A DNA stretch of 60,916 bases, filler included, from Dirinaria sp. TL-2023a (GCA_051941275.1; 6 parts of 6 records of this genome joined end to end with filler, not necessarily neighbours in it), one strand, 5' to 3'. Positions 1 through 60,237 are shown, counted from the first letter of the whole stretch. Made by a program: numbers and translations. The notes: a model not told the origin generated them from the letters alone.

Positions 1-499
1 AATGCCTGCGCTCGCCCATTGCCGCGGGTCCTAGAAGGTTTTCGGGATGCATCGCCTGAAGTCAACTTGCCAGGGTGCATCGTGGCTCTGCGGTACCTGC
101 AGCGATATGCATGCACTAGGACCGGCTGGGAGGAACCAAGATGTGCCAATAAGATTTTGGATCATGATGCGTCGAACACACTCTGCTCTCGTTCCCGTTC
201 CGAGAGGGAAAAGCACCTGTCGCTTTCCCCAACTCCCGTTTCCCGTTCAAGACACCATTGCGACCGGTGATTCAAATGTCTCGATCCTCGCATGCACCTG
301 AGCTTCGTAGACTCAACGTTCGAAAATGATTAGTGATGGTTGCTGACGAGCTACCACTACTGCGCACAGACGTGACTCATCCGGTCATTCTCCAGAGCAC
401 CGCGGTCCGCGGCAAGCAACGATCCCCTTCAAACTGAGGATTACCGTGGAATTTTCTGAGTAACCGTTCTCGCGTGGGTCTTCGTCACTACGACAGCTT

Positions 500-1780
500 A
501 TTGCAACCTCGCTGCCTCTTCTCCATTCCACGCCTACAAGGCTCTCTCTCACCAGGTAAATGTATCCGTAGGTAGAAGGCTGCCAAGCTTTTCCCTAACC
601 GTTGTACCGGAATCACTCAAACCCACCTAGAACCGACTAAGAACCAACAGCCCTGCCAGGGTTTACGGGTACTCGTACGCCTCCGATTCCCTGTCGAAGC
701 CACTTTTTTTTTTTTTCATTTCCCACGCCTCAAGAAAAAATTGTCACTGCGGCGACGCTGGAACACATGATTCACGACTGAGCACGCACAAGCTACGCGG
801 AACGCTTTGTCCAGCCCCGACTGTGCCAGACACGCAGTGTTGCCGAGTCAAAGTTCCTGGCGTTGCATCAAGGTATCATTTCGGCATCCGCAGGACTCAT
901 TCTCGCTCCTTACTTGGAGCGACCATTTCCTGTGTGTTCAGACACTCGGCTAGCCTGCTGCGCTTGTAGGGCGCGCATGTTCCCTGTTTTACGAGAGGGT
1001 CAGATGGGTTGAATGACGTGTGAGACCGCTCGGGAAGAGCAAAAGAAAACAAAAGGCGAATTCAAGCGTTGTACGCTTGGACGCCGAGAAATTGCTCGGC
1101 ATCAATGACCAGCTGAGCCCCTATTACGAGATCCTTATTGATATTTCGTGACACCCTTTCTGCCTGCTCCCTGATCTTTCGCCCTGCTTCTGGATTAGCT
1201 GGGACAAACACGGGATGAAACCAACCGTGGTCTACCCGAAAGATGAAACTCACGCCGGGCGCAGACACTCTTCCCCCCTTCAAGGTCTTGGCATACCAAG
1301 AGTACAACCAGATAGATGATCGGTTAAACCGGTCCACATCAGATCTCAATTTCCACCTCAAGCCAATAACTTCAACCGTTTGGGGAAATTTGGGCCAGTA
1401 ACACGCGAACAGCAATCAATCCTTGAGACAAGTAGAATACGATTCCCTGCTTCGCTCCTTTCTGTATACGGAAGACGGATATACCTCTATGTGCGTTTGC
1501 GTTACCTAGTACCTGTACGGAAGCTCGACTCCGGGTACCTGAGTTATTTGGCAGGGCAGCGCCGATCCTCCTTCCAGCGCGCCGTCCCATGGTGCCACAC
1601 CTCATGCTGCTCTAGCTGCAGAAACCGGCACTGTGATGTGGGCGTCCCGGGCGAATGAGCTATCTCTTGGATATGCTTCGCCCCAAATAGCCATTTCGCC
1701 GCATGTTTTGGGAACACAACGTGGTAGCCACGTGGAGCGCTCGGCATGATCGTCCCGCTTCCATTATTACCTACATAAGG
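500..1780 (+). ncRNA. TER1: Candidate telomerase RNA (TER/TR); both ends approximate
   Basis: Template CCCTAACC (593-600) abuts a 7-bp hairpin (575-592). Long-range helices TGTATCCGT 561-569/ACGGATATA 1475-1483 and CGCTGCCT 510-517/GGGCAGCG 1554-1561. CR4/5-like junction at 1640-1742 with P6.1 TGTT-TTGGG-AACA (1704-1716). ATAAGG (1775, 1782) and GCTGAC (1859) lie downstream. No credible ORF in the region. Folded by eye only. Confidence 0.7.
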
Positions 1781-3484
1781 CATAAGGTTGCGCATTTTGG
1801 ATCTAGAAAAGTCCATAGTGCACCAGATCAGACTCAACGTTCCATTTATGGGTCCTGGGCTGACTGATCGCGGCATGCTTACATTACCAAGCTGTCAGCT
1901 TCGTCTGCAACTGCTTGCACTACCAGAACGAAACTGCTGCCTTCGGTTAATCTTATGACTCCGCTGACGACTTGGCTCTGATGGAATATGAAATGAATAC
2001 TTCATCTTATTCGTACTCCATAGACCCGCTTTGCTGATATTCTAATCTTTCTGACACCGGACAAAGTGAACTCCACCGCCTAGGGAGACACAGCCTCTAA
2101 ATACATGTAGTAAGGATTACGTGGTCGTCCAATTCTTAGCTTACACGGCAACCATCCATCCAGATCTCTTGAAAAAAAGTCTGCCTTAATCAAATAGTAA
2201 TCGCTCATCTACTAGTTGTAAGGAACCGATACCAAGTGAATCCTAACCCAAGCCCTTCCTTTGGCACCTTTGTCAACTCCCAGTCATTAAGTGAGAAGCC
2301 CCACTGGATACGAAGATTCTGCCGCTCCATTAGCAATACCAAGGTCTTCCATTTCTTTCGCCGCTACAAGGATACTGATAAGAAAATCGAGCTTGTCTGA
2401 CTCCTTCATAACTTCGGTAATTGAATCAGCAAATACCCAAAGATCGTGATACTACGCTTGAAGATATTGATAAGCAAGAGCTCGATACTGTTGCTGGTCA
2501 CTCCTGATTGCTGTCATCACATCATTGTGGACAAAGCAGCACCTCTCTTCTCTCCCCGTCTGCCAGTCTCGCCAGTGTGACGGCCTGTCGATGAGACGCG
2601 CTGTTAAGATAAAAGGCTAACAATGTGTGGTGGTGAGCCGTACGGCCCGATCCAGAGCCCAATAAGCTGTTTCTGTCCTGGCCCTGCAAATGAGAAACCC
2701 CTCAGTATGAGATACCAGATTTGGTTCTGAATCGCACCGGATTTCAAGACTAGGGTCGCTGACGCCAGATGTTCCGCCTCTTATGTTTCGTTTACTCTGG
2801 CTACGCAATAGGAAAGGTTCTCAGCGCTGCAGATTGGCTTCAGACGAGAGATGCCGCAATAACAGGCCGTCCAGTGGATTTATCAACAAGGTAATCAAAT
2901 TGTCTAAACCAGCATGGATGAGATCATCGAACGTTGCGACAGTCTAGTGGCTCTCGTCACTGATGACGAAGTCAGATAGGCCTGACTATTATTGATGCTA
3001 CAGACTCCACAGACCGCGAAGCCACATCGAAACCAGTCCTGCCATGAGCATGTTGTCGAATCTCCCTCAAGCCGGTAGAAAGCAAAGGTAGAGTGCGTTG
3101 CACTTGCAATTGACTACTCCAGAAGGTGATCGTTGCGAAACACAGCGCTCAAGCACAGCCCTACACTTGCACAATAGCGGTTAGGTTACCTACATCAGTC
3201 AGCCGTTGCTGCTTTCGGGGATCACGGATGAACGAGAACGAAAACGAGAGGTACAGGCAGTGTGAGTCATTAATATTTCCTGATCATTTAGTAGATTATT
3301 GCCATAGAGGCTCTCTCAAGTAAGTGATATAGTGAAGACTACCTTACAAGCACAGATACACTATTTCAGGTCTTCTATTTGATAGTCTTTGTAGCCTTCT
3401 ATTAAAGCGTTTCGGTCACGTTTTAATCACTCCTCAATTTCAGGTCAGGCATAGTTCTGTGACATTCTAATGATTTAATCGTCA

Positions 3485-4796
3485 ATGGCGCCTCCACCTA
3501 AAGTTGCTATAATTGGCGCTGGTCCTGCGGGCATGACGCTGGCACATCTCCTCCTAAAAGCCTCGATCCCGGTGATCGTTTTCGAAGGCGAGGCTTCACC
3601 ACTTATCCGCGGTCAGGGAGGCACTCTAGACTTGCACGACGATACTGGACTGAAAGTCTTGAAAGAGATAGGGCTATGGGATGAATTTTTGAGGTATGCC
3701 CGCTACGATGGAGAGGCAATTACAATTGCCGACAAGAATCTCAAAAAGTACATTTATATGGGAGGGACCACGATGGAGACGAGCCGTGGGAGACCGGAAA
3801 TTGATCGTGAGAAACTACGAAAGATTCTATACGAAGCGCTGCCAGATGGCACTATTCGCTGGGGTTGCCGGCTACAGAGATTAGGAGAGGACCGCTCGCT
3901 GCATTTCGATCACGGCGTGGAGTGTGGCTTTGACCTGGTCGTTGGCGCAGATGGTGCTTGGTCCAAGGTGCGGCCCTTGCTATCAAGAGTCAAGCCATAC
4001 TACTCCGGTCTTGGTGGCATACACAGTGTGGTGAATAATGCCGAAAAAGAGCACCCCGATCTTTACAAGCTCGTCAACCGAGGGTCCCTGTTCTGCTCTT
4101 CAGACGGCAAGAGCCTAATAGCGCAGCAAATGGGTGATGGGAGCATGACAATTGGTGAATGGACGCAGCGACCAGAGGACTGGCAGGAAACCTGTGGCTA
4201 CAACCTGAACGACCCGAGCCAGGTCAAGCAAGCGCTGTTGGAGGAATTCCGCGGTTGGGATCCACAGCTGGTGGAGTTTATCAATGCCGCCGACAACAGT
4301 CAACTCGTTCCTCGATCCTTGTACATGCTGCCAGTAGGCCATCGATGGGGTCATCGTGCAGGTTTCACGCTGATAGGGGACTCGGCGCATCTAATGACCC
4401 CTTTTGCAGGCGTAAGTGGTGTTTATGTTCTCGTTCTGTGCTCTCTGATGGTTGCGAAGATATGCTGACTCGATGATTTAAAAGGAAGGGGTCAATCTTG
4501 CAATGACGGATGCGTTAAAGCTAGCAGAAGCTTTAGTCTCCAGCAGCGGTTCCGAGAAGAATGATGCAGTGGATTTAGCAGTAAAAACTTTTGAGGAGGA
4601 AATGTTCTCAAGGGCAAGCATCATCGCTGAGGTTACGAAAGGAAACATGGAAGATCTGCTATTCTCGTCGGGCATGAGTGAGCACACTGCACCTCGGTAT
4701 GTCAGGAGAGCGTTGTTGGGTGAGAAGCCATGGCTGGAAAGGTTAGTACCTCTATGGTTTGTGAGGCTTTTCTTGCGCCTCTACTTCAAATGGTAG
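3485..4796 (+). CDS. FAD-dependent monooxygenase, TetX-like group A flavoprotein
   Basis: GAGPAG Rossmann motif, QGGTLDLH, RPEIDR, DLVVGADGAWSKVR, and GDSAHLMTPFAG|EGVNLAM across intron 4412-4484 (GTAAGT...GCTGAC...AAG). Confidence 0.9.
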
Positions 4797-5272
4797 GTAA
4801 ACATAAGTATTCGATGTGGCAAAAGAAAGAAGTTCAACGCCCCAATCATTCAAAGCAAGCAGCGGAACCCAATGTAATACTGTGTATATCAAATTTGAGA
4901 GCCCCCAACCCTCCATGGATTGCTCTCAATTGGATATGGGTAACTGCTGCAATTACAATAATCATATTCAAACGCTTGATATTATATTCAAACCTTACGA
5001 ATGCGACTGCGTAATTCTCCCTGCATATAGTTTAGTCCTGGAGTCTCTTCTATGAGAAACGGCAAGTAGAGTCATGTGACTTGCGTAGTACGTAGTAGCT
5101 GGAGCAGTTCCGAAGCTCGTACTTGCAGTACTGAACATAATTTCTGGCCCAATGATACTTCTGCTGCGTACAATTACCCGCTGAATTATTCCATCCCGGC
5201 GGCTCCATTTGCACGTCTGATCCGGACAAAGTACAACGTTCATCTTATTCTCTCCTTGAACTCGACCTCAAC

Positions 5273-6041
5273 ATGGCAACGTCAAATTGGCGGACTATAA
5301 ACATAGATCTCCTCGACCCCGACTCCCCCGCCAACTTCCCGGTGCCATCCCTACTCCCCGCTTCTATTCCATCGGTCTCCTCCTCGGAAGTACAATCGCT
5401 AGCTGGGCAGATAAAGCAACTATTACGAGGCGGGGACACAGAGGGTGCGCTGAGAGGCGCGCTGGAGAATGCACCGTACGGGGGAGACAGCAGTGCGAAG
5501 GTATGTAGCCTTTTCGCCCTTGTCTTTGGGAGCCAAAGCACAAGTGAAATATCTACGCATCGTCGCTGACTTTGCAATGGCCCAGGAAGTACATTTAGCT
5601 ACAGTGGTGGAGATCCTACAGTCAATAAAACAGTCCGACATGTCGCCTTTGTTGAATAGAATATATGGCTCGGATGGTGGGATTGAACTTCTGGACGTCT
5701 TGATGAAATATCTGTACGTGAGGCGCCGGATTCGCTCAACGCATATCCATTTTGCACTGCTCATTCTGAAACCTCTATCTCTACCCGGCCACCTTCTCCT
5801 TCCTGTGGCATGCTGATCTTGGACAAGGTATAAGGGCATGTCCCGTACCTCAAATACCGCGTCTGCCTCCATCCGTTCATTGTCACCACAACCAACCGGC
5901 TTTTCGCAGATACAGTCAAGAGGTGGCGGGGAAGGTGGTGGGCAAGCGATGAGTGTTCTTTTAAGCTTTCATGAGAAATTAGTAGAGATCGCTGGGCCAG
6001 GGTCTATTGTACGGGTTATGACGGATCGAAGAACGGTTTGA
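5273..6041 (+). CDS. ARC15: Arp2/3 complex subunit 5 (ARPC5)
   Basis: NWRTINIDLLDPDS, ALENAPYGGD, LDVLMKYLYKGM, MSVLLSFHEKLVEIAGPGSIVRVMTDRRTV. Introns 5501-5585 and 5714-5827. Confidence 0.95.
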
Positions 6042-6306: not shown

Positions 6307-7442
6307 CTATGTCGTCCCTGCTCCTCCTCCTCCTCCTCCTCCACCTCCTCCCAGTACATCTGTCATGGAAATTTGACCAGATCCTCTTGCCAGGGGCTCT
6401 GGCTGCCCCTCACCAGCCGTCCACCCTATCATGTATATGATTCGAAAGGTTGCCGGCAGAGTCCCGTCCTTATTCCCGTGCAGTGTCCGATATATACCCT
6501 CACTAGCCAACAAGACATCTCTGCCAATGGGTCCCATCTCCCTCCCGACCACAGCATTGTTCTCTCCCATAGCTTGCAGATCCTTCATCAAGGCAAATGT
6601 ATCTGGGTAATCCACGATGATATCATCAACGTCGACTGTCAAGAGTTTAAAGCCAGCCTTCGTCAGAAGTCCTCCGACATCACGCACGTCAGCTAATGGA
6701 GAGGTATGCGTGCTGACTCCGCCAAGTCGATCCTGCTCCGATAATTGTAACGAGGTGCGTAATTCGTACAATGAGTCTCCTCCAAGCATAGCTGCTATGA
6801 AAGGACTATCTGGTTTCAGAATATGATTGATCTGGGCCAACAGCGATGGAAGGTCGTTTATCCAATGCAAGGACACTGATGAGAGGACGGCTGAGAACGA
6901 CTGTGGTTCGAATGGGAGAGGATGATCGATTGGCGGGAGTTCGACACGTGTGTGGGAAGATAGACGGTCATTGAATGGGAGAGATGCATCGCGCCAGAGG
7001 AGCCTGGGGGAGGTCTCAGCGGACGTGAGATGGGTGAGACGAGTGGACGGCGTGACTGGGCGATCTGAAGTCGTGGAGGGGATAGTAAGAGCTCGGGCAA
7101 TGTTGCAGGCATTGGCACCAAGGTCAAGGACGGTGGGAAAGTGGCGATTGATGTCCTGGGCAGGATTTAGACGAGAGGGTAGTCTGAGGACATTTTGATT
7201 GGAGTCAGGCGCACGAGCAGTCGTTCGCAAAGCCTCGATGCTACCTCATCGCGAAGGTAGTCGACTTTTCTGCTGCCTTCCCCATCCAGGGCAGCCCGCT
7301 CTTTCTGGAGGTGCTTGGTGTTGCTGTTGAAAACCTGGAGTATGGGCGTACCTGGTGATTGAACTGCGTAGGCTCTGGAATTTGATATGGGTGGTCGAGT
7401 TCCTAAGCGCCGAGAGAAAGGTCGTAAAGATACTTTATTCAT
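6307..7442 (-). CDS. NDUFAF5: Mitochondrial complex I assembly factor 5 (SAM-dependent methyltransferase fold)
   Basis: Presequence-like N-terminus, KHLQKERAA, DYLRDEVASRLCERLL|DINRHF (intron 7156-7214), LDLGANAC, SLHWINDLP, TLPATFRIIYMIGW. Confidence 0.93.
6321..6350 (-). repeat. (GGA)n trinucleotide tract encoding the poly-Gly tail of NDUFAF5
   Basis: ctcctcctcctcctcctcctccacctcctc on +, translating to GGGGGGGGGG just before the stop. Confidence 0.85.
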
Positions 7443-7786
7443 TGGGAAATGTTTGCTACATGAGCAAATTCGAAACGTTCAGCAGCTAGAAGCATTGGAG
7501 TAGAGAGTACCTTACCTGTAGCCTCAAACGAGTGGCGACTAAAGTACGTCAATCGCGCCCAAACTTCATCATAATTAGCTTAATCCGGCACTGTGGCTCG
7601 TGTACTTTAGGTACGAGACTACGAGTACCTTACCTCTAGAGGCTCTAGGCTTTTGCTACCCGGGACTATCCCTATCAGCCTTCCCGAGGGACTGCGAGCC
7701 TGCAACCTCCAAATGCAAGTTCGAGGCGGTCCCTTTTACGGCTTCAGCGGTTGGTACGGGTAGGTAGTTGTACTTTGCCTTGCAGC
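7443..7786. promoter_or_regulatory. Bidirectional promoter NDUFAF5/DCTN4 with duplicated 13-mer GAGTACCTTACCT
   Basis: 344 bp between divergent ATGs; identical 13-mers at 7505-7517 and 7623-7635. Confidence 0.55.
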
Positions 7787-9492
7787 ATGAAGTTTCCCTA
7801 CACCTACATCAGCTGCCCATGCACCGACATCAATGCCTCAAGCGGCTTGAATAATGCGAAGAGCAACGGTGATGAGGAGGAGGAGGAGGATCAAGAGAAG
7901 ACCTTTGGTCCAAGCTCACCTCGCGCGAACTTTTCCTTGTACCCCATCGAGCACCTCTTATATTGCGAGGACTGCCAGCAAATCCGATGTCCGAGGTGCA
8001 CGATAGAAGAGATATCATGCTGGTACTGTCCAAGTTGTCTCTTCGAGGTTACCAGCATGTCGGTCAAGAGTGACGGCAATAGGTAGGTAAGGCTTCAGCA
8101 CCTCAATCCTACCATTCGTCGAATGTTACAACTGAGCAGGATGGCAGATGCCTTCGTAATTGCTTCGACTGCCCGATATGTACGGCTCCTCTGGGTCCGA
8201 ACCTCATCAACCCTGAAGGGGATGCCATGGCGGGACCATACATCCTTGCTTGTGATTATTGTCATTGGACGACACTGGATATCGGCATGCAATTCGATCG
8301 GCCCACAAGGATCAACGAAAAGATAGCGGCGCAAAGGGCAGAGATGAAAGCGAAACGAGCATCGGATCCGGAGTCGTCATCAAGTGAGCGTCAACCAGCG
8401 AAGTGCGACCCAGAGGAGGCATTTGCATCTCTGAAGAAATTCATGTCGTTGCAAATTTCGTCTGCCGCAACTGCAAACCCCCTGCTCACCCCTGGCGGGG
8501 GCTACAATTACGACTCGCCGAGCAGTCTTGCCCGGATCATGAGCCTCTACACAGGTCTCGGGTCGTACGGCAAGAAGAACACCTCGAAAGCAGGACCCAT
8601 GCGCGAGAGCGCTGACGCTTCAGAGGGGCTCCAAGTCTTCGATTCGAAAATCGACATGGCAGCTGTTGACCATCTACGCAAGCAAGGCTACGAAGGGGTG
8701 ACGAGCCAAGAACAACGTGCAAACCAACGCTTCCCATCACGATGCATGGAGGACTTGCTTCCTGTTCCTACCTTGCTGCGTACGAAGCGCGCCAAACGCT
8801 GTCGAACCTGTCGGCATATTCTGGTAAAGCCAGAACCGAAAGTAGTGAGCACGAGATACAGGATCAGGCTTCTAGCGCTAAATTATATTCCTTCAATCAC
8901 TCTGCAACCTTTGTTGGCTCCTGCGTCAGCCTCTTCTCCTTCGGCATCGGCGATGAACCTTAACAATCTACCTGCACTGAAAGCGAACCAATTCCTCCTC
9001 ACGCTCAAGAATGCTCTCTTTGAACCTGTCAAAATCACTCTCGCCACCCCATCACACACCCCTGGGCGTTTCAGCCATAAGGTCACGATCCTTTGCCCTC
9101 AATTTGACATCGGCGCGAACGCTGACCCCTGGGACGAGGCTCTGGCATCAGGCGACACGTCTAATCGCCGGGCGAGCAAAGCGCTGCCATCGTCTCACTC
9201 TGTTAGGGATGACGCGGGAGGCACGAAAGTGGCTGAGGCGGGAAAAGTCTGGGAGAAAGGACGGAATTGGACGACAGTGGTGCTGGAGGTTGTCTGTGAA
9301 GCTGTCGTTGGACAAGACGAGAGAGAGGATGCGGATGTGTTAGAGATACCAATCTTTGTAAGAACGGAGTATGAGGTCGATGTGGAAAAGGAGAATGTCC
9401 AGGCCAGCGCGGAGAAGGAAAGGAGGGAGAAGCGGGAGCTGGCTTACTGGGCCGTTATCGGGGTTGGAAGAATTGCGCCGATTAGTGTGTGA
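7787..9492 (+). CDS. DCTN4: Dynactin subunit 4 (p62)
   Basis: LLYCEDCQQIRCPRC, WYCPSCLFEV, GNR|CLRNCFDCPIC (intron 8083-8147), LRTKRAKRCRTCRHILVKPE, ELAYWAVIGVGRI. Confidence 0.93.
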
Positions 9493-10054: not shown

Positions 10055-10088
10055 CTGTGAGGGGGTATTAGCTTGAACTTTAGTTTAC

Positions 10089-10188
10089 NNNNNNNNNNNN
10101 NNNNNNNNNNNNNNNNNNNNNNNNNNNNNNNNTTAATTAATTAANNNNNNNNNNNNNNNNNNNNNNNNNNNNNNNNNNNNNNNNNNNN
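10089..10188. other. Artificial contig linker
   Basis: N44-TTAATTAATTAA-N44, with stops in all six frames. Confidence 0.99.
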
Positions 10189-18077: not shown

Positions 18078-20261
18078 ATGGCTTCTCTTGGGGAAGACCT
18101 TCTTGGGACCGTCAATAAGTTACAAGATCTCGTCTTTAACACCATTGGCAATGATTCTCTCGATCTACCACAAATTGTAAGCCCGAATGGGCGTATGATA
18201 TATGAGAGACTTGTGTGTGAAGCTGACTAGACATAGGTTGTTGTAGGCTCGCAGTCTTCTGGGAAATCATCGGTACTAGAAAATATTGTTGGTCGAGACT
18301 TTCTACCTCGAGGGAGTGGCATCGTAACAAGACGGCCCTTGATCTTACAGCTCATCAACATTCCTAGTGAAAGGGAAGACAAACCAGAAAATGACGAGGT
18401 GCATATACCACACACAGCCGCGAGCGTTGCCGGTCAAGGAGAATGGGCAGAGTTCAACCACCTTGGCGGACAAAAGTTTCGGGATTTTGGCGAGGTTAAG
18501 CGGGAGATAGAAAACGAAACCGCCAGGATAGCGGGGAGCAACAAAGGCATCAACAGGCAACCCATAAACCTTAAGATATATTCGCCGCATGTTCTGAGCT
18601 TAACATTAGTGGATCTTCCGGGTTTAACAAAGGTGCCCATAGGGGATCAGCCGACAGATATTGAAAAACAGACCAGGAATCTCATCTCTGAGTATATCGC
18701 GAAGCCCAATAGTATCATCCTGGCTGTCTCGCCGGCCAATGTCGACATTGTCAACTCTGAAGCTCTGAAGCTCGCTAGACATGTGGACCCTAGAGGCCTG
18801 CGCACGATAGGGGTTCTGACCAAACTCGATCTAATGGATCATGGTACAAACGCGTTAGACATACTTTCTGGCCGCGTGTACCCATTAAAACTTGGCTTCA
18901 TCGGCGTTGTCAATCGATCACAGCAAGATATTCAAGGTAATAAATCGCTAGCCGAGGCTTTGAAGTCAGAGGCAGAATTCTTTAGGCATCACCCAGCGTA
19001 TCGGAACATGGCGAGTCGATGCGGCACACAATACCTTGCAAAAAGCCTGAATACAACTCTCATGGCCCATATCCGAGAGCGGCTACCAGACATCAAAGCA
19101 CGGCTTAACACTTTGATGGGCCAGACTCAGCAGGAGCTCGCCAGCTACGGTAGCGAACAATTTAGTGGAAAAGAGCATCGCGGCTCTCTAATACTCCAGT
19201 TGATGACACGCTTCGCATCCTCCTTTATCTCATCGATAGACGGCACGTCAACCGAAATCTCAACCAAAGAGCTCTGCGGTGGCGCCCGAATCTACTACAT
19301 CTTCAACGACGTCTTCGGGAATTCCCTCGAAACAGTCGAGCCCTCCCAAAATCTCTCTGTTTCTGATATACGAACCGCGATCCGCAATTCGACTGGGCCA
19401 AGACCGAGTCTTTTCGTGCCCGAATTAGCTTTTGAACTCCTTGTAAAACCGCAAATCAAGATGCTCGAAGTACCCAGCCAGCGGTGCGTGGAGCTAGTGT
19501 ACGAAGAACTAATCAAGATTTGCCATACTTGCGGCTCGAATGAACTCTCTCGCTTTCCACGACTGCAAGGAAAACTCATTGAAGTTGTCTCTGATCTCCT
19601 GAGGGAGCGTCTAGGCCCTACTTCCAGCTATGTAGAATCGCTCAATGCCATAGAACGTGCTTACATCAACACCAATCATCCCAACTTCCTTGGCGCTGCA
19701 GCTGCAATGTCATCCGTCATACAGAACAAGCAAGAAAAGGAGAAGAAAGCCGCGTTGGCCGAAGAGAAGAAGAAGCGAGAAAGGCGGCGCATGAAAGAAC
19801 TTGTCGGCGTCAACGGCACTGCCACCCCTGAAGAGGACGAAGAGGTTGAAGACATAAAGGCCAGTCAAACCCTTCCCGTCCGCGGACACCATCCTGCCAA
19901 AGCCAGCAGGAGCATGTCCCCTGCCTTAGGCCGCCAATTCGAAAACTCGCACGGCATCGCAACAACCATGAACGGCGCACGATCTAGCTCGCCACCTCGA
20001 TTCGGCGGTCCAGCGGCAGGCGGCACCGGACGAGATTCATTCCTCAACTACTTCTTCGGCAAAGATGGCGGCCTCCCCCCAGCCAGTGCTCCGCCACCAG
20101 GCGGTACATCGATGAGCAACCGGCACGTCAGCACACACGCAGAACCGAGCTTCAGTCAGAGTATACGGCGGGGCGACAACCGAGTGATGGAACGGGCGTC
20201 GCCGGTGGCCCCACCCTCACATACTTCAGACGACTACGCCAACCGAGACTTTGACTACGAC
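18078..20261 (+). CDS. DNM1: Dynamin-related mitochondrial fission GTPase, 3' truncated at contig end
   Basis: MASLGEDLLGTVNKLQDLVFN, LDLPQI|VVVGSQSSGKSS (intron 18177-18236), LPRGSGIVTRRP, DLPG, TKLD, insert-B RDSFLNYFFGK; GED absent. Confidence 0.95.
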
Positions 20262-20361
20262 NNNNNNNNNNNNNNNNNNNNNNNNNNNNNNNNNNNNNNN
20301 NNNNNTTAATTAATTAANNNNNNNNNNNNNNNNNNNNNNNNNNNNNNNNNNNNNNNNNNNN
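20262..20361. other. Artificial contig linker
   Basis: N44-TTAATTAATTAA-N44. Confidence 0.99.
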
Positions 20362-30089: not shown

Positions 30090-30431
30090 AAAAGCTCCCT
30101 ACCTACTCTATCCTTTGATGATGATGCAGGCTAGCTAGGCTATGGAAAGGGGTAATGGGTGTCATGGGTCGTGGTGCTCAAGTGCTGAGCCCAGGTTCAG
30201 GTGGTTTTGAGGAAGGCGTTCCACAGCCCAGGCTCTGTCTCTTTCGCAATAGAGTTCTAGAATTGAATTGAAATTAATTTTGTGTGTAATATTTTTTTTG
30301 GAGGGGGGGGGGGGGAGCAATGCTGCCTGCTTTTCGTGTTTGGGACTCGTACTTTTTGGAGAATTATCGAACCGCGCCGTGAAGCATACATACATACACA
30401 TATCTCCATCTACTTGAAGTAAGATAAGGTA

Positions 30432-30531
30432 NNNNNNNNNNNNNNNNNNNNNNNNNNNNNNNNNNNNNNNNNNNNTTAATTAATTAANNNNNNNNNNNNN
30501 NNNNNNNNNNNNNNNNNNNNNNNNNNNNNNN
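30432..30531. other. Artificial contig linker
   Basis: N44-TTAATTAATTAA-N44. Confidence 0.99.
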
Positions 30532-35018: not shown

Positions 35019-35098
35019 TGGAGCCACGGAGGATCGAACTCCGGACCTCTCGCAAACGTGGATGCAAAGCGAGCGCTCTACCACTGAGCCATAACCCC
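35019..35098 (-). tRNA. tRNA-Ala(TGC) with 8-nt intron
   Basis: GGGGTTATGGCTCAGTGGTAGAGCG-CTCGC-TT-TGC-A-[TCCACGTT]-T-GCGAG-AGGTCCGGAGTTCGATCCTCCGTGGCTCCA. Has the G3:U70 Ala determinant and a downstream T-run terminator. Confidence 0.95.
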
Positions 35099-40291: not shown

Positions 40292-40597
40292 TCTTAATTT
40301 TTTTAATAAGAGGCGGAGTTAGGAAAATGGGGGTGTTCCAGAGGGTAAGTGGGAAATGAGACAAAGATATATTATCTGGAGAGAAGACGCTGATTTAAAT
40401 AGTATATATATCTCCCGCCTTGGTGTTACTGCCGAAGTCGGTGTGTCAAAATAAGAATCTTTCCTCTGTGAAGAATGAGTGTTGCTGAAGGTCGTGTATT
40501 AGAAAATCTTCGTCAGTGGAAATTGGGTGTTGCAAATTCACATACCTTCTTCCCGAAAATCCCTTAAATAATAAAACCCCATCCATCATACCGGGGG

Positions 40598-40697
40598 NNN
40601 NNNNNNNNNNNNNNNNNNNNNNNNNNNNNNNNNNNNNNNNNTTAATTAATTAANNNNNNNNNNNNNNNNNNNNNNNNNNNNNNNNNNNNNNNNNNNN
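40598..40697. other. Artificial contig linker
   Basis: N44-TTAATTAATTAA-N44. Confidence 0.99.
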
Positions 40698-41930
40698 TAC
40701 TACTCTGAAAGTAGTTGCTATTATCGGTTTTCTTCAAGGACTGGGCTCGATAGATCGAGTCTGTTCCGCTGTTGTGAGCTGCTTTTCTGAGTCTTACTGT
40801 TAGAAGACGCACTCTACCTTCGCCAATCTCTTCAACTCCCAGATCTGCAGCGCGCCCTCATGCTAGCAGTTTGAGGTTCCTGGATACAAAATCTCCGGAG
40901 AGCATACGAACTTATGATGACGAAAAGAAATTCGAATTCGATGTCCATAGCCACCAGAAAAAAAAGTCATGAAGTATCTCTTGACCTCTAATATATTTGC
41001 CAACTCGCCGACCTCGCAGCCAAGGAGGTTAGTAGAGCATTCAAAAAAAATGATGAGAAACAATTTCAGATGATCTATCTAGGAATAACATCCTGTCATC
41101 TTACGAGCCACATTTGGCGTAAACGGGAAACGACAACAAGGCAAAGCAGTAAAGACATGATCAATAGGAAAATCAACAGCAGAAATGAGCCAGTGATCAA
41201 CGCAGTGAATAGAAACATGAACAATATCAATAATGTCGACGGTCTTTCAGTCGAACATACGACAGCTCGACGGCTAAGTTCCAAGGAGTCAATTCAGTCA
41301 GGATGTCTTCTCAACAATCTCCTTGTTCTCTGCGTCGCTGTCGAAATGAGGTACCTCCGGGGTCAGATCGTGATGGTGAGATAGTATACCGAGTGCATAG
41401 GTGCCTACTCGAATGGAGGACTTTATATGCTTCTTTGTAGACTCTGCTGCAACTATCCGACCTTGATAATACCATTGCAAATATTAGTCATCTTGTATTG
41501 GCTTTATAATGCGTGACATATATCAAGGTGTTGTGGTGACCTCGTTCGTGTCTAGGAGCCTTTCGCATTCCCTGACGAAGTCCTTTACTATGAGTTGCTT
41601 TCTTTTCCAATCTACCGCCCTCAGCATTATTTTCGAAGCCCTTTTACGTTAAGATGCTTTTCTCACGGCTTATCCTGGGTGTCTATGTTCCGAGCCTTCC
41701 TTGAGAATCCCGTTGCGCTCACCATTCGATGGAGTTTGGCAGTCTTGTTGCTGCTTTTTGTCCTCTTCACGACCTTTCTTTAAATGCTCAGAGTCATGTC
41801 TTTGAGCCTCTGCAGTAACCTAGGAGGTGGTATACGGGACATTGAGTCCTTGATGCTCTTGATATTCGTTGTGGTGGCACTCAGAGGGAGAACCTTCGCG
41901 ACGGACCGTAGGTGCCCCGTTGCCGGCCAT
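40698..41930 (-). pseudogene. Degraded multi-pass membrane protein relic with many nonsense codons
   Basis: One minus frame reads TLLILFMFLFTALITGSFLLLIFLLIMSLLLCLVVV..*..CFSSFFLNALLTSLAA..WQIY*..S*LFFLVAMDIEFEFLFVIISSYAL. The upstream part looks coding but has scattered TAA/TAG/TGA. Boundaries approximate. Confidence 0.4.
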
Positions 41931-43349
41931 CGAAACATTCTGATGATCGGAAAGTAGAAAAAGCAGAGTGTGAATGAAGTAGTAAGTAAGAGTAAAGATT
42001 AAAATTCATTGTGGAATAAAATTCATATCGTTCAATAAGTCTACTGAGAAATTGTACTCTAGTTAGTAGTGCTCAGGCTCCGTTAAAAAACGACTCGCGC
42101 TGCTCTTATGTATTCGCTTTTCTCTCTGCTAGTCCTTGACTCCTTCGTCCTATATCCGTCTCTTAGTTTCTCGTATCAAGGATCTTGATAAAGACAATCA
42201 TTAAAATCAGCGACACTCAACTGACTAATATGTAATAGAATTAGCGGAGCAATGAATATCTCGTAAGCCACTTCGTAAAAAAGAAAAACGCTGATCGATT
42301 AGTGTTTCTGTCCACTATCAATTGGTAAAATCCATACCTACATAAGATCATAGATACCATTTATTGATGCATTAAGGCAAATCACCGCCCTGAGTACCAA
42401 CTTAAGTCTCGTATATAGCTCCTTTCCCTCTCTACCTAGACAAAGAACAATTGAGAAAGTCAAACAATTGCGACAACCTCTACCTTAGGTTCTCTTTGGA
42501 GGTTAGGGTTGTTAGTGTATGTGAGCCCTAAAAGATTAGAAACAGCGAGTACGAGTGCCTCAAATGACGTAGTTACCTAGTACCTTGGGATCAAGACAAC
42601 ATTCGCTCAATACCTTAATCATGACTCAAAATCCCTCTGATTTGGCTGCCGAGTACAGAGATCTGAAATCGACGACTTAATAAATTATACTTACTCCTAT
42701 CTAAAAGGCAAGGGAAAGAAGAAACAAAGGGTCTCACAGCATCATCCCACGAGGTATCATTCGCTAAGACGAACCTCTCGATGCAAGTTTGGTTATTTCA
42801 AGACCATCTATCTCATTTGCAACGTTCACTTTTACTGTAATAAGGTCCAACATAATCTTATCATTCCATGGTTATTCGCTTTTTTCTTTCTTTCTCCATC
42901 TATTCACTACTCTACTACTCACATCGTTCTGGCAACTAAGGTCACGTACATCATTGAGATGTATGTATGTATGTGACCCAGATTTGAGGGGGATAACATA
43001 TCCTTGTAGGATCGGATATGATATCCTGGGAACAATTGCGACCCGGGTCGCTTCCAGTGCCATAGCCCCACGGGACTATACTAAAGGTGCAAAAACCAGT
43101 GCCACTTAGAGCTCGTCGCTACTTCACAACTCGCGACGAGAGACCTGATGCCACCACCAACCCACGAGTCTCCCACAGAGCTGTGAATCGCTTGTCTGCG
43201 TGTGCCCTGGTTTAGAAGATGGGGATTTAAATCCGGTTCCAATGGCAAATGTTCTCTTTCTCTCTCTCACTCTCTCTGTGGTCAATTTCAATCGTTTCCT
43301 GCTCTCGGATTTTTTTTTTCCCTTAAAAAAGTGTGCTTCTAGCAGAATA

Positions 43350-50110: not shown

Positions 50111-50759
50111 TGTCGTAGATCAAATGCCACAGACGGTCAGTCAAAATGAAGCTTCCAGAGAAGCTCAGCATCATTAGATCCATGCTCGTTATCGTCGATT
50201 TCATAGATTGCATTAGAGGTGTGCTACCAACCACTTTGGTGGAGGGGGTTTCGCTTCTTAAGCCCAATGGCAACAACTCCAAGCGGGAGAGGTGAGGGCC
50301 CAGGCCCCAAAGGCCGCTAAACGGTCATTTAGTGGGAGAGCCTCGGCACCTAGGTACGCTCTCTACGGGTACCGCCCACGCCGCCCTTGCTACCTACATG
50401 TAAGGTAGGTATGGTATCGAAGCGCCAAGCCTCAACCAAGTAGGAGCCTCGGAGCCAAACCAACCACCTCACCTAGCAATTCATGGCCAAAGGGCATCAA
50501 TAATAAAATACCGATCGATCACCATGAACAGCCATCACCAATTCAACAGATCGCGCAAATATCACTCATCATAGCGAGAGCAACGAAAGAGCCAATAAGA
50601 ACCTAAATCAATAACCCAACAGGCCAGTCAAGGAATATCAGCATCCATTCTTGCCAGAGCACGGCATAGTAATGGCCACATATTTGCGAGGGAGATGTGG
50701 CGATTTCCGTTGAGATTTATCTCACCTCTAACCATGAGGGTAAGCGAGGAAACGTAGCT

Positions 50760-50859
50760 NNNNNNNNNNNNNNNNNNNNNNNNNNNNNNNNNNNNNNNNN
50801 NNNTTAATTAATTAANNNNNNNNNNNNNNNNNNNNNNNNNNNNNNNNNNNNNNNNNNNN
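50760..50859. other. Artificial contig linker
   Basis: N44-TTAATTAATTAA-N44. Confidence 0.99.
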
Positions 50860-57449: not shown

Positions 57450-57994
57450 CACATCAAATCGTCTCGTCTCTGGAATCATGGAGGATAGGGACAATGGTGT
57501 GCTTGAGTATCGTGTATGACACCTAATATCTAATATTATCCTTGTCTAGGTCTGAAAAGATCCATGTAAGCTCCCAGAATGGGTCGTAATCGTCTCCTGT
57601 CCACTGTCAGATAGCTCGCTGATTGCGATATTGGCTGTTATCACTGCTCCACAACTTGAGGGGTCTTTGGCAACTGATTAGCCCTCGAGCACCCTCGCTC
57701 TTGCCTTTTGCCATTGAAAAATTTTCAATAGGAGTTGTCTTGAGGGAACAAATTTCCACATGTCATAAGACTGCCTCATGGAACCGGGAGACATAGACAT
57801 CATTTCACATTCTGGCCTCCAGCATTAGAGAAGCGCCGATCATGATTCGAACACTTCTGCTTAGCTGCTCTTGTCTTGCGGTCTTGAGGAGTGTGTGAGA
57901 GGTTCAGCGGTGTTGGAGGGTTGAAGCTGTAGTTTGCATGGGACATTCAAGAGCAAACTTTGCGTTACTCTACCTTACAGTAGGGTCCGTAGGG

Positions 57995-58143: not shown

Positions 58144-60237
58144 ATGAAGCGTAAAGCAGACGAAGAGCTCAGTACTCCTCCCAGCAAGAAGAAAGCTTCA
58201 GATGTGGACGACATACGAAAGCGATTCAGCGTAGACCTTTCTGATCAGCAGACACTTGACAGCTTTACTCTTGAATATGCAAATTCCAAGCCGTGAGCTA
58301 GTCGCTCCGACCTCCGCAGACTGTTTTTTCTTACGAGATGTAGCTATAAGCATGCGGTTATTAAGGACCTGATTGCTCAGTCGCTGCTTCGCAAAGTTCG
58401 CTCCGAAATCCAGGACAGCATTTCCTTTACGCCCAAAGAAACAGACATTTATCGGATTCACCAGTCAGGGGATCTGGCAAATCTGGATGGCTTGGATGAT
58501 GCCTCGCTCCAGCGATTGCCGTCCCTCTTATCGCTGCGAGATGCTCTGTACTCGGAGGCTTTTCGTACCTACGTTTCCCAAATTACCAAGTCTGGACCGC
58601 TCTCCGGTAAGAAGACTGATATGGCTGTGAACGTCTACACTCCCGGGTGCCATTTACTGTGTCATGACGATGTGATTGGGAGTAGGAGGGTTAGTTATAT
58701 ACTGTACCTAACAGACCCCGAGAATCCATGGAAAAAGGAGTGGGGCGGTGCGCTGCGATTCTACCCTACCCAAACGCACACTGCGGAAGGAATAAACGAG
58801 CGCCCCGTTAAAGTGCCGCTGCCGGACTGGTCGGTGTCCATACCGCCAAGCTTCAACCAATTGAGCTTCTTCGCCGTACAACCAGGAGAGAGCTTTCATG
58901 ACGTCGAGGAGGTCTATGCACATGAGAAACGAAGCGATGGCGAAGATGGCAAGACGGTCCGCATGGCGATTAGTGGCTGGTACCACATTCCGCAGGAAGG
59001 CGAACCCGGCTACGAGCCAGGCGCAGAGGAGAAGCTTGCCGAGCAAAGCAGTTTGCAACAGCTGCAAGGAAAAGGGGACGAATATGACCTTCCCCGGATA
59101 AGTTTCAGAGCCTATGAAATTACCGCCGGTCACGACCATCAACCCGATGCGACCAATGAGAAGCAGGATGGTCTAGAAGAAACCCAGGGTCTCACAGAGC
59201 AGGATCTGGATTTCCTTGTCAAATATCTCAATCCAGTCTACCTGACTCCGGACACTCTTGACTCCGTCTCTGATGCATTCACAGAACAATGCTCCCTACT
59301 TCTCTCCGATGTTCTTCACAAGAAATTTGCGGATCAACTTCGGGAATTCCTTACCTCAGAAGAAGAGCGGTCTCTTCCGACTTCAGCTTCTGAAATCAAA
59401 GACACCACTGTCTGGAATGTAGCACGACCGCCCTATAAACACCGGTATCTCTACCAACAGCCTTCCGCAGTTCTTCACGATGAAAGTTCTTCCCAAACAC
59501 CTCTCTACGAACTTCTCAACAGCTTGCTTCCCTCTGTGCCATTCCGAAAATGGCTTCAACTAGCTACCCACCAGAATATCCTTTCACATAATGTACTAGC
59601 GCGACGCTTCCGTCGAGGTCAGGACTACACTCTCGCTACAAGCTATGACGAAAAGAATCCCAGGTTGGAGCTTTGCTTCAATATAACGCCTACTCCAGGA
59701 TGGGGCAGCGAGGATGAGCCATCCGAAGGCAACGACAAGGCTGACGGTCAGGTTCCCGGAGGCGAAGCTCCACCCGTAGGAGGCTACCTAGCTTACATGG
59801 TCGGCGACGAAAACCCCAAGGATCCTGAGACAGGCAGTGACCATGATGTCAGAGTACCAACAGATCTGAGCACCGGTGGGCGCGCCTCAGGTAGCATCAA
59901 AACCTCCGATGCGAAGCATACCAAGGCAGATCCAGCGGTATATCAAGCTACAGGCGATGAAGAGGATGATGGGGTGCTCTTCAGTACGCTGGCGAGCTGG
60001 AACCAGATGGCGCTTGTGCTGAGGGACAAGGGTACAATGCGCTTTGTGAAATATGTCAGCAAGCAAGCCAAGGGTGACCGATGGGATCTGCTAGGAGAAT
60101 TTGAGATTGAGGAAGTTCAAGAGGAAGAGGATGATGACGGCGAAGCTACCACTGAAAGGGCAGACGATCCAAGCCCAACGATTGACACGCGAGGAGGGTT
60201 CCATGGCTACAGCGAGGATAGTGAGGACAGTGACTAA
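58144..60237 (+). CDS. TPA1: uS12 prolyl 3,4-dihydroxylase Tpa1/Ofd1 (2OG-Fe(II) dioxygenase)
   Basis: MKRKA NLS; SKP|YKHAVI (intron 58293-58343); FTPKETDIYRIHQSGDLANL; HLLCHDDVIGSRRVSYILYL; SFHDVEEV; RMAISGWYH; LVLRDKGTMRFVKYVS. Confidence 0.96.

Follow-up and report, generated by a model that had tools for sequence, protein, structure and literature searches.

The plus strand between positions 500 and 1900 of the DNA analysed here, a stretch of 60,916 nucleotides including filler (the window), probably carries the gene for telomerase RNA (TER) from a filamentous ascomycete. Short TER signatures, mostly present, follow one another in the right order within an apparently gene-free stretch, and this combination suggests a TER gene of a filamentous fungus. 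The putative mature RNA would extend over 500..1774 (+), about 1.27 kb with a GC content of 0.523, as delimited by the order of its elements and the lack of a coding signal, with a predicted 3′ end just 5′ of the first of two AUAAGG motifs. Telomerase RNAs evolve so fast that the annotation of genomes overlooks them. This kind of RNA is already known from Pezizomycotina, and the locus is probably a further member.

The initial annotation of this region had listed six elements in the expected order on the plus strand (an outer helix, a core-enclosing helix, a hairpin, a template, a CR4/5-like junction and a splice-like 3′ signal), and all six are present where it had placed them. Its identification of the locus as the organism's TER is still the best explanation, and is strengthened by motifs added here, i.e. 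a unique P6.1-type hairpin, an A-first pair of splice-like sites with a branch site, and a pair of CS3/CS4-like blocks, as well as by the absence of a coding signal and a divergence from a relative lower than that of the flank. It is weakened by the fact that both of its structural anchors, the outer and core-enclosing helices, are at chance level, by the lack of a match to Rfam, and by a pseudoknot that could not be fixed. Direct observation covers the motifs and the order in which they stand, the rarity of their combination, the absent coding signal and the divergence below that of the flank.

Template, boundary hairpin and long-range helices

The template had been proposed at 593-600 as 1.33 copies of the complement of TTAGGG, and CCCTAACC is indeed found there. 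In the candidate template CCCUAACC, 6 nucleotides would template TTAGGG and 2 would serve for alignment, which amounts to more than one repeat but is the minimum possible length; the template is 9 nt long in the N. crassa TER (PMC3592445, available parts) and 11 nt long in man. The sequence is as proposed, but the window holds 6 sites with an 8-mer from the (CCCTAA)n series. The probability of being unpaired, calculated for the ensemble of 505-1773, is 0.42 for the template and 0.42 on average.

Among the other template-like sites, which make poorer candidates, 2242 (+) is altered in a close relative (C2249T), and 58687 (-) is antisense to a 646-codon open frame. The TER of the window might instead lie at a longer site, AACCCUAACC at 42510-42501 (-), whose 10-nt match (1.67 repeats) is the longest in the window, which lies within an ORF-free span (41382-43148), and which is followed about 400 nt downstream by the A-first motif AUAAGA and by UACUAAC, a perfect branch-site consensus. 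However, the surrounding DNA is AT-rich (GC 0.39-0.45), a composition in which short signals of this sort are frequent. With this splice-like site the RNA would moreover measure only about 0.4 kb, and the minus strand has neither a P6.1-like hairpin within 2.5 kb downstream nor a CS3/CS4-like pair. We consider this location the least probable of the readings weighed here, and return to the candidate TER at 500-1900.

The hairpin described directly 5′ of the template (575-592) does fold, with 7 bp including 2 G-U pairs and a GCCA loop. This candidate boundary element abuts the template but is weak (-5.8 kcal/mol); in Aspergillus TERs, according to the available parts of PMC3603654, the boundary helix mostly lies 2 nt from the template. 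Further downstream, a U13 tract and an A-rich run AAGAAAAAA (704-716 and 732-740) lie within the piece of the candidate that is least diverged from the relative.

The outer and core-enclosing helices both exist as initially drawn, but at a level expected by chance. The outer helix, formed by the 5′ strand CGCTGCCT (510-517) and the 3′ strand GGGCAGCG (1554-1561) with 7 Watson-Crick pairs and 1 G-U pair, appears in the minimum free energy structure (MFE) of 500-1570, and has a pair probability of 0.02-0.04 in the ensemble of 505-1773. The core-enclosing helix (554-569/1475-1486, 5+7 bp around a 4-nt bulge) is the best two-segment helix of Watson-Crick pairs only between 500-592 and 620-1640; helices of at least 12 bp nevertheless arise in 49 of 400 dinucleotide shuffles, the pair probability in the same ensemble is 0.00, and the relative carries a 1-nt insertion after 1482, within the 3′ strand. 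A test of long-range helices with RNAduplex, in which 5 of 300 shuffles equalled or surpassed the real sequence, was judged unsuitable, since long strands yield sprawling duplexes, and the two-segment helix count was used instead. Nothing convincing was found when a better core-enclosing helix was sought beside the CS4-like block, and a helix at 516-523/1032-1039 was rejected, as it crosses the proposed stem 2 of the pseudoknot and has a pair probability of 0.01-0.02. As evidence, long-range helices that are picked out by eye within 1 kb of RNA count for almost nothing.

Pseudoknot region, CR4/5-like junction and 3′ end

Clues to the pseudoknot region are given by a CS3-like block (975-990) and an A-rich CS4-like block (1041-1056). 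In the former, 11 of the 14 positions of 975-988 agree with the consensus for the core of Aspergillus CS3 (Kuprys et al. 2013, PMC3603654, Fig. S1), and the CS4 core AAACAAAA (1047-1054) comes 58 nt later, at a spacing similar to that in the Aspergillus TERs of the same source, available in part. AAAACA (1046-1051) would be able to pair with UGUUUU (985-990), the possible 5′ strand of stem 2, giving a possible stem of 6 bp. Such a CS3-like block with AAACAAAA occurs once in the window, both strands included, and in 31 of 2000 simulated strands; the chance of its falling between template and P6.1 is about 3e-4, a value that is optimistic because the CS3 motif and its boundaries were picked after the match had been seen. 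The block differs from Aspergillus CS3 in having no run of five U before it, and no convincing stem 1 was found for this pseudoknot. A strict and a relaxed search for H-type pseudoknots were both rejected as evidence. The 9 candidates from the strict search all lack a short U-rich loop. Those from the relaxed search, 36 in number, all combine the U13 tract and a stem 1 of 4 bp, and hits also arose in 38 of 60 shuffles. The pseudoknot and the junction of Pezizomycotina are described in a 2018 paper as conserved enough for homology searches.

The P6.1-type hairpin UGUU-UUGGG-AACA (1704-1716, +) consists of 4 Watson-Crick pairs and a 5-nt loop, and directly follows the junction GCA (1701-1703). 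The pattern of a UU[AG]GG loop on a 4-bp stem has three matches on the two strands of the window, this one being the only match with Watson-Crick pairs throughout. The sequence pattern follows the published rule for P6.1 of Pezizomycotina and vertebrates, a 4-bp stem with a 5-nt NUNGN loop whose U and G are required for activity in N. crassa, and the A directly 5′ of the hairpin corresponds to one described as invariant in reviews. It is a match by sequence pattern and not by energy, since 16 of 150 shuffles and 2 of 142 genomic controls do as well as the stem adjoining P6.1 (-20.2 kcal/mol). The pair probability of P6.1 in the ensemble of 505-1773 is 0.01-0.02. When a 20-nt stretch with P6.1 was compared with metagenome contigs, a single contig (L001) matched, unrelated beyond the 20-mer, and scans of genome contigs and of viral contigs gave 0 matches each.

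Around this hairpin, the CR4/5-like junction first placed at 1640-1742 can be drawn at 1626-1757, with P5 (1626-1648/1734-1757), P6 (1650-1700), P6.1 and an extra hairpin (1719-1733). It thus folds as a four-way junction, whereas a compact three-way junction of P5, P6 and P6.1 has been described, and the region has no excess stability over shuffles (z = 0.05). The constrained fold of the junction has an energy of -53.4 to -53.9 kcal/mol, compared to -54.8 kcal/mol for the free MFE. A stem-loop closing 3-4 nt upstream of P6.1 is possible, and near-optimal folds have P6 ending 3 nt before it. In N. crassa, P5 is dispensable for activity.

The predicted end of the candidate is marked by two tandem AUAAGG motifs (1775-1780 and 1782-1787), 59 nt after P6.1, which represent a candidate non-canonical 5′ splice site of the A-first type. 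They are followed by the branch-site match GCUGACU (1859-1865, branch A at 1863), an exact fit to GCU(A/G)ACU, and by two candidate 3′ splice sites AG (1890-1891 and 1897-1898), 27 and 34 nt after the branch A. The signal at the 3′ end of Aspergilli TERs likewise comprises an A-first 5′ splice site, AUA(A/C)GU, followed by GCU(A/G)ACU (PMC3603654, available parts). A splice-like 3′ signal, as listed in the initial annotation, is present at 1775-1898; its branch site is exact, but AUAAGG departs from the published hexamer at position +6. The fold of 1730-1790 offers an alternative 3′-terminal stem-loop (1732-1764) with a pyrimidine/U-rich tail AUUAUUACCUAC (1763-1774, 0.76 unpaired), and the order of features at 1732-1787, hairpin, U-rich site and then 5′ splice site, resembles that in Aspergillus. 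The window contains 87 ATAAG sites, 4 of them with GCTRACT 25-150 nt downstream; at 1775 and 1782, GCTGACT lies 77-84 nt downstream. GCTRACT itself occurs at 12 places, several of them within or beside interrupted reading frames of neighbouring genes, and GCUGACU at 1859 has the extended form found at the likely introns of the organism.

Transcription, processing, folding and function of the candidate TER can be predicted from these elements as follows. RNA polymerase II would produce a TER precursor, in which the spliceosome would recognise one AUAAGG (1775 or 1782) and, as branch site, GCUGACU (1859). Splicing would stop after its first step, as we propose, because the intron begins with A and not G, leaving a mature RNA of about 1.27 kb that would end near 1774. 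In this RNA, CCCUAACC (593-600) would template TTAGGG with an alignment region of 2 nt, the hairpin 575-592 would halt copying at the 5′ edge of the template, and the reverse transcriptase would be bound by the pseudoknot (CS3/CS4-like blocks, 975-990 and 1041-1056) and by the P6/P6.1 stem-loops (1650-1716).

Joint rarity, coding capacity and divergence from a relative

The combination of elements exceeds chance. Of 600 simulated windows, 0 under strict definitions and 3 under relaxed ones contained a template 8-mer followed 300-2500 nt on by a P6.1-like hairpin, then by ATAAG and CTRAC. TERs may be expected at about 1 per several hundred windows by our own estimate, a figure similar in magnitude to the false-positive rate of the relaxed composite.

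The main alternative is that the motifs co-occur by chance, in conserved intergenic DNA or in some other long non-coding or untranslated transcript, with the real TER elsewhere. Every motif is short, the template 8-mers recur at 6 sites and motif definitions were partly picked after the data were seen; the helices at chance level, the lack of a thermodynamic signal, of an Rfam match and of a clean pseudoknot, and the estimated TER prior comparable to the relaxed composite also point in this direction. This explanation would have to accommodate a strict composite seen in none of the random windows, a CS3/CS4-like pair at the expected place (about 3e-4), a branch site in the extended form of the organism's likely introns, and the colinearity of all elements with the published TER order. 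We therefore regard chance co-occurrence as a serious alternative that is nonetheless unlikely, the TER reading being the one preferred.

The covariance search for an ascomycete telomerase RNA that had been recommended as a check was negative: among 4227 Rfam models, no telomerase RNA family matched 1-3000, 1600-1900 or 500-900, either at gathering scores or at E-values up to 10. The E-value scans of these three segments returned only chance-level matches to unrelated families. Rfam includes an ascomycete TER model, and known TERs are often missed by Rfam models; the non-match was hence not treated as defining. Over the whole window, the Rfam gathering scan reported only a tRNA, while ARAGORN found no tRNA.

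The region initially described as apparently empty proved to be so by several measures. There are no open frames of at least 130 codons in 1-3478, none of the 7 frames tested in 1-3323 has a Pfam family at cut-off, and the proteins searched include no homologue of a 110-aa frame over 1547-1876. The coding-like GC and the conservation might still reflect a gene for a protein, or a pseudogene, that lies unannotated on one strand or the other. The GC of 0.52 is at the upper end of what ORF-free spans show, and the minus strand has open frames of 110 codons (1544-1876) and 117 codons (1062-1415). Neither of these frames has a Pfam family at cut-off, however, and the indels of the relative that fall within 1062-1415 measure 4, 1 and 1 nt among those listed. 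With open frames, Pfam searches and non-triplet indels all speaking for a lack of coding capacity in the candidate TER, we consider a coding origin very unlikely.

A close relative of the organism occurs in a DNA run (share 0.05) that bears the label lichen metagenome. This single relative is about 92% identical, and its contigs cover 325-2300 except for 1225-1279 and 1969-2028; positions are given for 40 of its 135 substitutions and for 12 of its 18 indel rows. Divergence amounts to 89/1318 (6.8%) in 623-1968, compared to 38/272 (14%) in 2029-2300 (Fisher test, p = 2e-4), and the least diverged piece, 623-827, has 7 substitutions in 205 nt. Among the 40 of 135 substitutions listed, none falls in the template, the CS3/CS4-like blocks or P6.1. 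Likewise, 1506-1921 is free of indels among those listed, where about 4 would be expected (P of about 0.015-0.02); at least 6 are listed in 1280-1505, with lengths of 4, 1, 1, 1, 1 and 4 nt, and others cluster at 406-424, upstream of the proposed start of the TER. The counts per piece favour a constraint that would act on the candidate, and a divergence half that of the 3′ flank, together with the segment 1506-1921 without listed indels, argues against chance co-occurrence; in favour of the latter, the relative is similar over all of 325-2300 and not over the candidate alone. Conservation does not delimit the gene sharply, since upstream, over 325-621, identity to the relative is about 91% as well.

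Comparison with known telomerase RNAs

Pezizomycotina TERs have been described from N. crassa (2049 nt) and from 72 further species (Qi et al. 2012, PMC3592445). As far as the available parts of that source extend, the candidate resembles them as a long RNA devoid of a reading frame, with a template for TTAGGG, a helix beside the template, a P6.1 with a 4-bp stem and an NUNGN loop, and the order template, pseudoknot region, junction and 3′ end. It is shorter (about 1.27 kb, compared to 1584-2425 nt), its junction is four-way, and its pseudoknot and core-enclosing helices are only tentative.

The TERs of Aspergillus and Penicillium (Kuprys et al. 2013, PMC3603654, available parts) share with the candidate the A-first 5′ splice site and the GCU(A/G)ACU branch site, the heptamer GCUGACU being that of the A. 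terreus TER. The Aspergillus RNAs in the same source also have a hairpin and a pyrimidine-rich tail before the splice site, and a boundary helix by the template. Their 5′ splice site, however, is AUAAGU or AUACGU, compared to AUAAGG in the candidate, and their splice site and branch site are about 35 nt apart, compared to about 80 nt. The candidate further lacks the C3-5 U7-12 Sm-like tract, and its P6.1 has the 5-nt loop UUGGG, the P6.1 sequence of Aspergillus being AAGC-UUAG-GCUU. Its neighbourhood is different as well. The genes near the candidate encode a FAD monooxygenase, p16-Arc, a methyltransferase and dynactin p62, whereas those in Aspergillus encode Zpr1 and a TATA-box-interacting protein.

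The P6.1 of vertebrate CR4/5 is similar to that of the candidate in having a stem of 4 bp and a loop of 5 nt, whose U and G are functionally required. The letters UUGGG of the candidate loop are presumably also those of the human P6.1 loop. Unlike vertebrate telomerase RNA, the candidate has no H/ACA 3′ domain, has no match to an Rfam vertebrate model, and would have its 3′ end made by the spliceosome.

In S. pombe TER1 (Kannan et al. 2015, PMC4299874, available parts), as in the candidate, an intron-like signal directly follows the mature 3′ end, and only the first splicing step is expected. The second step would be blocked in the candidate by the A at intron position 1, as in Aspergillus, and not by branch-site strength or U6 pairing as in TER1, and the candidate has no canonical Sm site upstream of the putative cleavage site.

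A search of the literature found 0 papers joining telomerase RNA with Lecanoromycetes. It is conceivable, although somewhat doubtful, that the candidate represents the TER of an ascomycete lineage that is associated with lichens and has no TER in the searchable literature, and that it would be the most compact one of Pezizomycotina so far (about 1.27 kb compared to 1.58-2.43 kb), with a minimal 8-nt template, a P6.1 loop presumably identical to the human one, a four-way CR4/5 and a doubled AUAAGG departing from the AUA(A/C)GU rule. Each new TER lineage narrows what is required of this RNA in terms of template length, P6.1, pseudoknot and spliceosome-made 3′ end. If the TER reading is true, a small and tractable TER would become available from a fungus related to one in a lichen sample, and the use of AUAAGG in place of AUAAGU as a cleavage-only splice site would become testable. 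The genes for p16-Arc, the methyltransferase and dynactin p62 would then provide a synteny anchor for the TERs of related genomes.

Genomic setting

The candidate telomerase RNA (TER) gene, at about 500-1900 on the plus strand, falls within 1-3478, the longest span of the window without an open frame of at least 130 codons. None of seven frames tested in 1-3323 reached a Pfam family cut-off, a 110-codon minus-strand frame over 1547-1876 yielded no homologue in the protein sets searched, and blastn detected no second copy of any part of 300-2300 elsewhere in the window. The GC content of 505-1773 (0.523) is at the top end of the range among ORF-free spans of at least 900 nt (0.42-0.53). Downstream of the ORF-free span follow a FAD-dependent monooxygenase (3485-4468, Pfam FAD_binding_3) and, further on, p16-Arc (approx. 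5156-5816), a methyltransferase (6307-7245, minus strand), dynactin p62 (7649-9492) and an NAD(P)H-hydrate dehydratase. RPS7 aside, the neighbours named in the initial annotation agree with the p16-Arc, methyltransferase and dynactin p62 set. Elsewhere, a tRNA gene at 35019-35098 (minus strand; Rfam, 56 bits) has 10 inserted nt following its anticodon loop, which look like an intron; ARAGORN in default mode reported no tRNA anywhere in the window. Five pairs of 45-base N runs, with 11 bases between members (10088-10188, 20261-20361, 30431-30531, 40597-40697 and 50759-50859), recur every ~10.17 kb, and this regular spacing makes them look like masking or withheld stretches and not assembly gaps.

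Candidate template and long-range helices

All six elements claimed in the initial annotation are present where it placed them, each alone carrying little evidential weight. The template candidate read from the sequence, CCCTAACC at 593-600 (+), is preceded by the hairpin 575-592, confirmed with 7 bp including two G-U pairs (-5.8 kcal/mol). Its 8 nt are the shortest workable length, which counts against the TER reading; Qi et al. (2012, PMC3592445) give 9 nt for N. crassa and 11 nt for man. The partition function computed for 505-1773 puts the template at 0.42 unpaired, equal to the mean base (0.42), i.e. with no extra accessibility. The outer helix (510-517/1554-1561) does form seven Watson-Crick pairs and one G-U, but its pair probability in the same calculation is 0.02-0.04. 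The core-enclosing helix (554-569/1475-1486) can likewise be drawn, with 5+7 pairs and a 4-nt bulge, and is the top Watson-Crick-only two-segment helix between 500-592 and 620-1640; yet helices of 12 bp or more arise in 49/400 dinucleotide shuffles, and its pair probability is 0.00. Also counting against it is an extra base after 1482, in mid-helix, in a relative represented by ~92% identical contigs from a DNA run labelled lichen metagenome. With G-U permitted, another pairing between these two intervals (500-592 and 620-1640) ranks best and is equalled by 110/400 shuffles. The relative has ~9 additional bases and one additional A at 621-623, just past the template region, so that insertion is tolerated in the 25 nt immediately 3′ of the template.

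CR4/5-like junction and putative 3′ signal

Inside the proposed CR4/5-like junction lies a P6.1-type hairpin, UGUU-UUGGG-AACA (1704-1716, +). A 4-bp stem with at most one G-U and a UU[AG]GG loop has three matches on both strands of the window, of which 1704-1716 alone is all-Watson-Crick. Its loop obeys the NUNGN rule for N. crassa, where, according to Qi et al. (2012, PMC3592445), P6.1 has a 4-bp stem and 5-nt loop as in vertebrates, the U and G of the loop being required for activity. Imposing P6.1 on the fold costs only 0.9-1.4 kcal/mol relative to the MFE, and the constrained plus-strand fold contains P5 (1626-1648/1734-1757), a long, interrupted P6 (1650-1700), a GCA junction between P6 and P6.1, and an extra hairpin (1719-1733). 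The junction can be drawn, but as a four-way and not a compact three-way structure, and with no excess stability (1600-1780, z = 0.05; 95/200 shuffles equally stable). A rival hairpin at 1649-1683 is about as probable. The stem adjoining P6.1 is equalled by 16/150 shuffles but by just 2/142 genomic controls.

In Aspergilli, spliceosomal cleavage forms the TER 3′ end, with processing halted after the first step because the intron begins with A; the published signal is AUA(A/C)GU, then GCU(A/G)ACU, and in A. niger the A at intron position 1 was shown to block the second splicing step. In the candidate, a stem-loop (1732-1764) and a pyrimidine/U-rich tail precede tandem AUAAGG sites at 1775 and 1782, the first beginning 59 nt past P6.1; a branch-site match GCUGACU (1859-1865) and AG dinucleotides (1890-1891 and 1897-1898) follow, all on the plus strand. 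The proposed splice-like signal can be read in the sequence; its hexamer departs from that of Aspergillus at position +6. The window contains 87 ATAAG sites; GCTRACT follows at 25-150 nt in only four cases, and 1775 and 1782 account for two of these. Further copies of the heptamer fall within or next to interrupted frames of neighbour genes (e.g. 4464, 5565), and from these positions the heptamer looks like the organism's true branch-site form. AUUUUGG at 1794-1800 (+) matches the yeast Sm-site consensus AU(4-6)GR; being just 3′ of both AUAAGG sites, it lies inside the putative intron and not ahead of the cleavage site. The remaining pairs within 150 nt, 18115/18222 (with an exact ATAAGT at 18115) and 38756/38886 (both +), have no template-like 8-mer within 2.5 kb upstream on the same strand; they may represent introns that begin with A, or they may have arisen by chance.

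The (CCCTAA)n series has six 8-mer sites in the window and one 10-mer, AACCCTAACC at 42510-42501 (-), the longest template-like match. This lies in an ORF-free, AT-rich span (GC 0.39-0.45) with AUAAGA and a perfect UACUAAC branch-site consensus ~400 nt downstream (~42110-42055, -); a P6.1-like hairpin and a pair like CS3/CS4, the Aspergillus pseudoknot blocks, are both absent on that strand, and the site is a weak alternative to the candidate as the TER. Two further sites are less favourable than the candidate: CCTAACCC at 2242 (+), with no P6.1-like hairpin downstream and a C2249T change in the relative, and an 8-mer at 58687 (-), antisense to a 646-codon open frame and lacking a splice signal, with a P6.1-like hairpin of the relaxed type at 57530, 1.16 kb downstream.

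Putative pseudoknot region, conservation and overall assessment

At 975-988, 11/14 positions match the Aspergillus CS3 core consensus as given in Kuprys 2013 (Fig. S1, PMC3603654). At 1047-1054, 58 nt past this block, comes the CS4 core AAACAAAA, a spacing resembling that of Aspergillus in the same alignment; Aspergillus CS3 is there preceded by a U run, whereas the block here is not. Across its two strands the window contains the pair a single time; of 2000 simulated strands, 31 contain it. Its probability of landing between template and P6.1, ~3e-4, is optimistic, perhaps by an order of magnitude, since motif and limits were chosen after the likeness was noticed. UGUUUU (985-990) could pair with AAAACA (1046-1051) as stem 2. 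A strict search gave no pseudoknot with a short U-rich loop, and a relaxed one only U13-tract constructs whose stem 1 has 4 bp; hits arose in 38/60 shuffles too.

The relative's contigs cover 325-1224, 1280-1968 and 2029-2300. Substitutions number 89/1318 (6.8%) over 623-1968, with a minimum of 3.4% in 623-827, and 38/272 (14%) over 2029-2300 (Fisher p = 2e-4 against 623-1968). In piece 1280-1968 none of the listed indels (4, 1, 1, 1, 1, 4 and 3 nt) falls within 1506-1921, where ~4 would be expected (P ~0.015-0.02). Nor does any listed indel fall within 828-1058, the stretch with the CS3/CS4-like blocks; further upstream there is a cluster of four at 406-424. The pattern fits constrained core domains with a variable linker between them, but as evidence it is weak, since identity reaches 91% in 325-621 as well. 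Thirteen consecutive T (704-716, +) and, 15 nt further on, AAGAAAAAA (732-740) fall in the least diverged piece, 623-827 (7 substitutions in 205 nt; 14 gap letters).

Among 600 windows simulated with an order-2 Markov model of the window, a template 8-mer was followed 300-2500 nt on by a P6.1-like hairpin in 11 (strict) or 65 (relaxed); with ATAAG and CTRAC added, the counts were 0 and 3. The Rfam check suggested by the initial annotation found no telomerase family at any threshold used; published work describes the Pezizomycotina pseudoknot and junction as conserved enough for homology searching. In the literature searched, no paper pairing 'telomerase RNA' with 'Lecanoromycetes' was found.

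By sequence pattern the locus shows features of Pezizomycotina TERs, namely a template, a boundary helix, P6.1 and non-coding character. The proposed unannotated gene is probably a telomerase RNA gene, against which stand long-range helices at chance level, the absence of a clean pseudoknot from both searches, the four-way junction, the off-consensus 5′ splice site and the Rfam result. The main rival, that the motifs came together by chance within conserved non-coding DNA, is distinctly less likely, if far from negligible: by our own estimate the prior for a TER per random window is about 1 in several hundred, comparable in order to the rate at which the relaxed composite gives false positives, so the verdict hangs on the CS3/CS4, coding-null and relative evidence, which is partly post hoc.

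As a TER, the locus would yield a Pol II precursor cut at AUAAGG through the first splicing step, with A 1863 as branch point, the A at intron position 1 blocking the second step by analogy with the A. niger signal. The mature RNA would measure ~1.27 kb, with 593-600 as template and hairpin 575-592 as its boundary; the pseudoknot region (~975-1056) and P6/P6.1 (1650-1716) would be the two TERT-binding domains, both of which N. crassa telomerase requires according to Qi et al. (2012, PMC3592445). That the locus works like, and is, a Pezizomycotina TER is the most likely reading. If real, this TER would stand out by its small size and by its UUGGG loop at 1704-1716, which resembles the human P6.1 loop.
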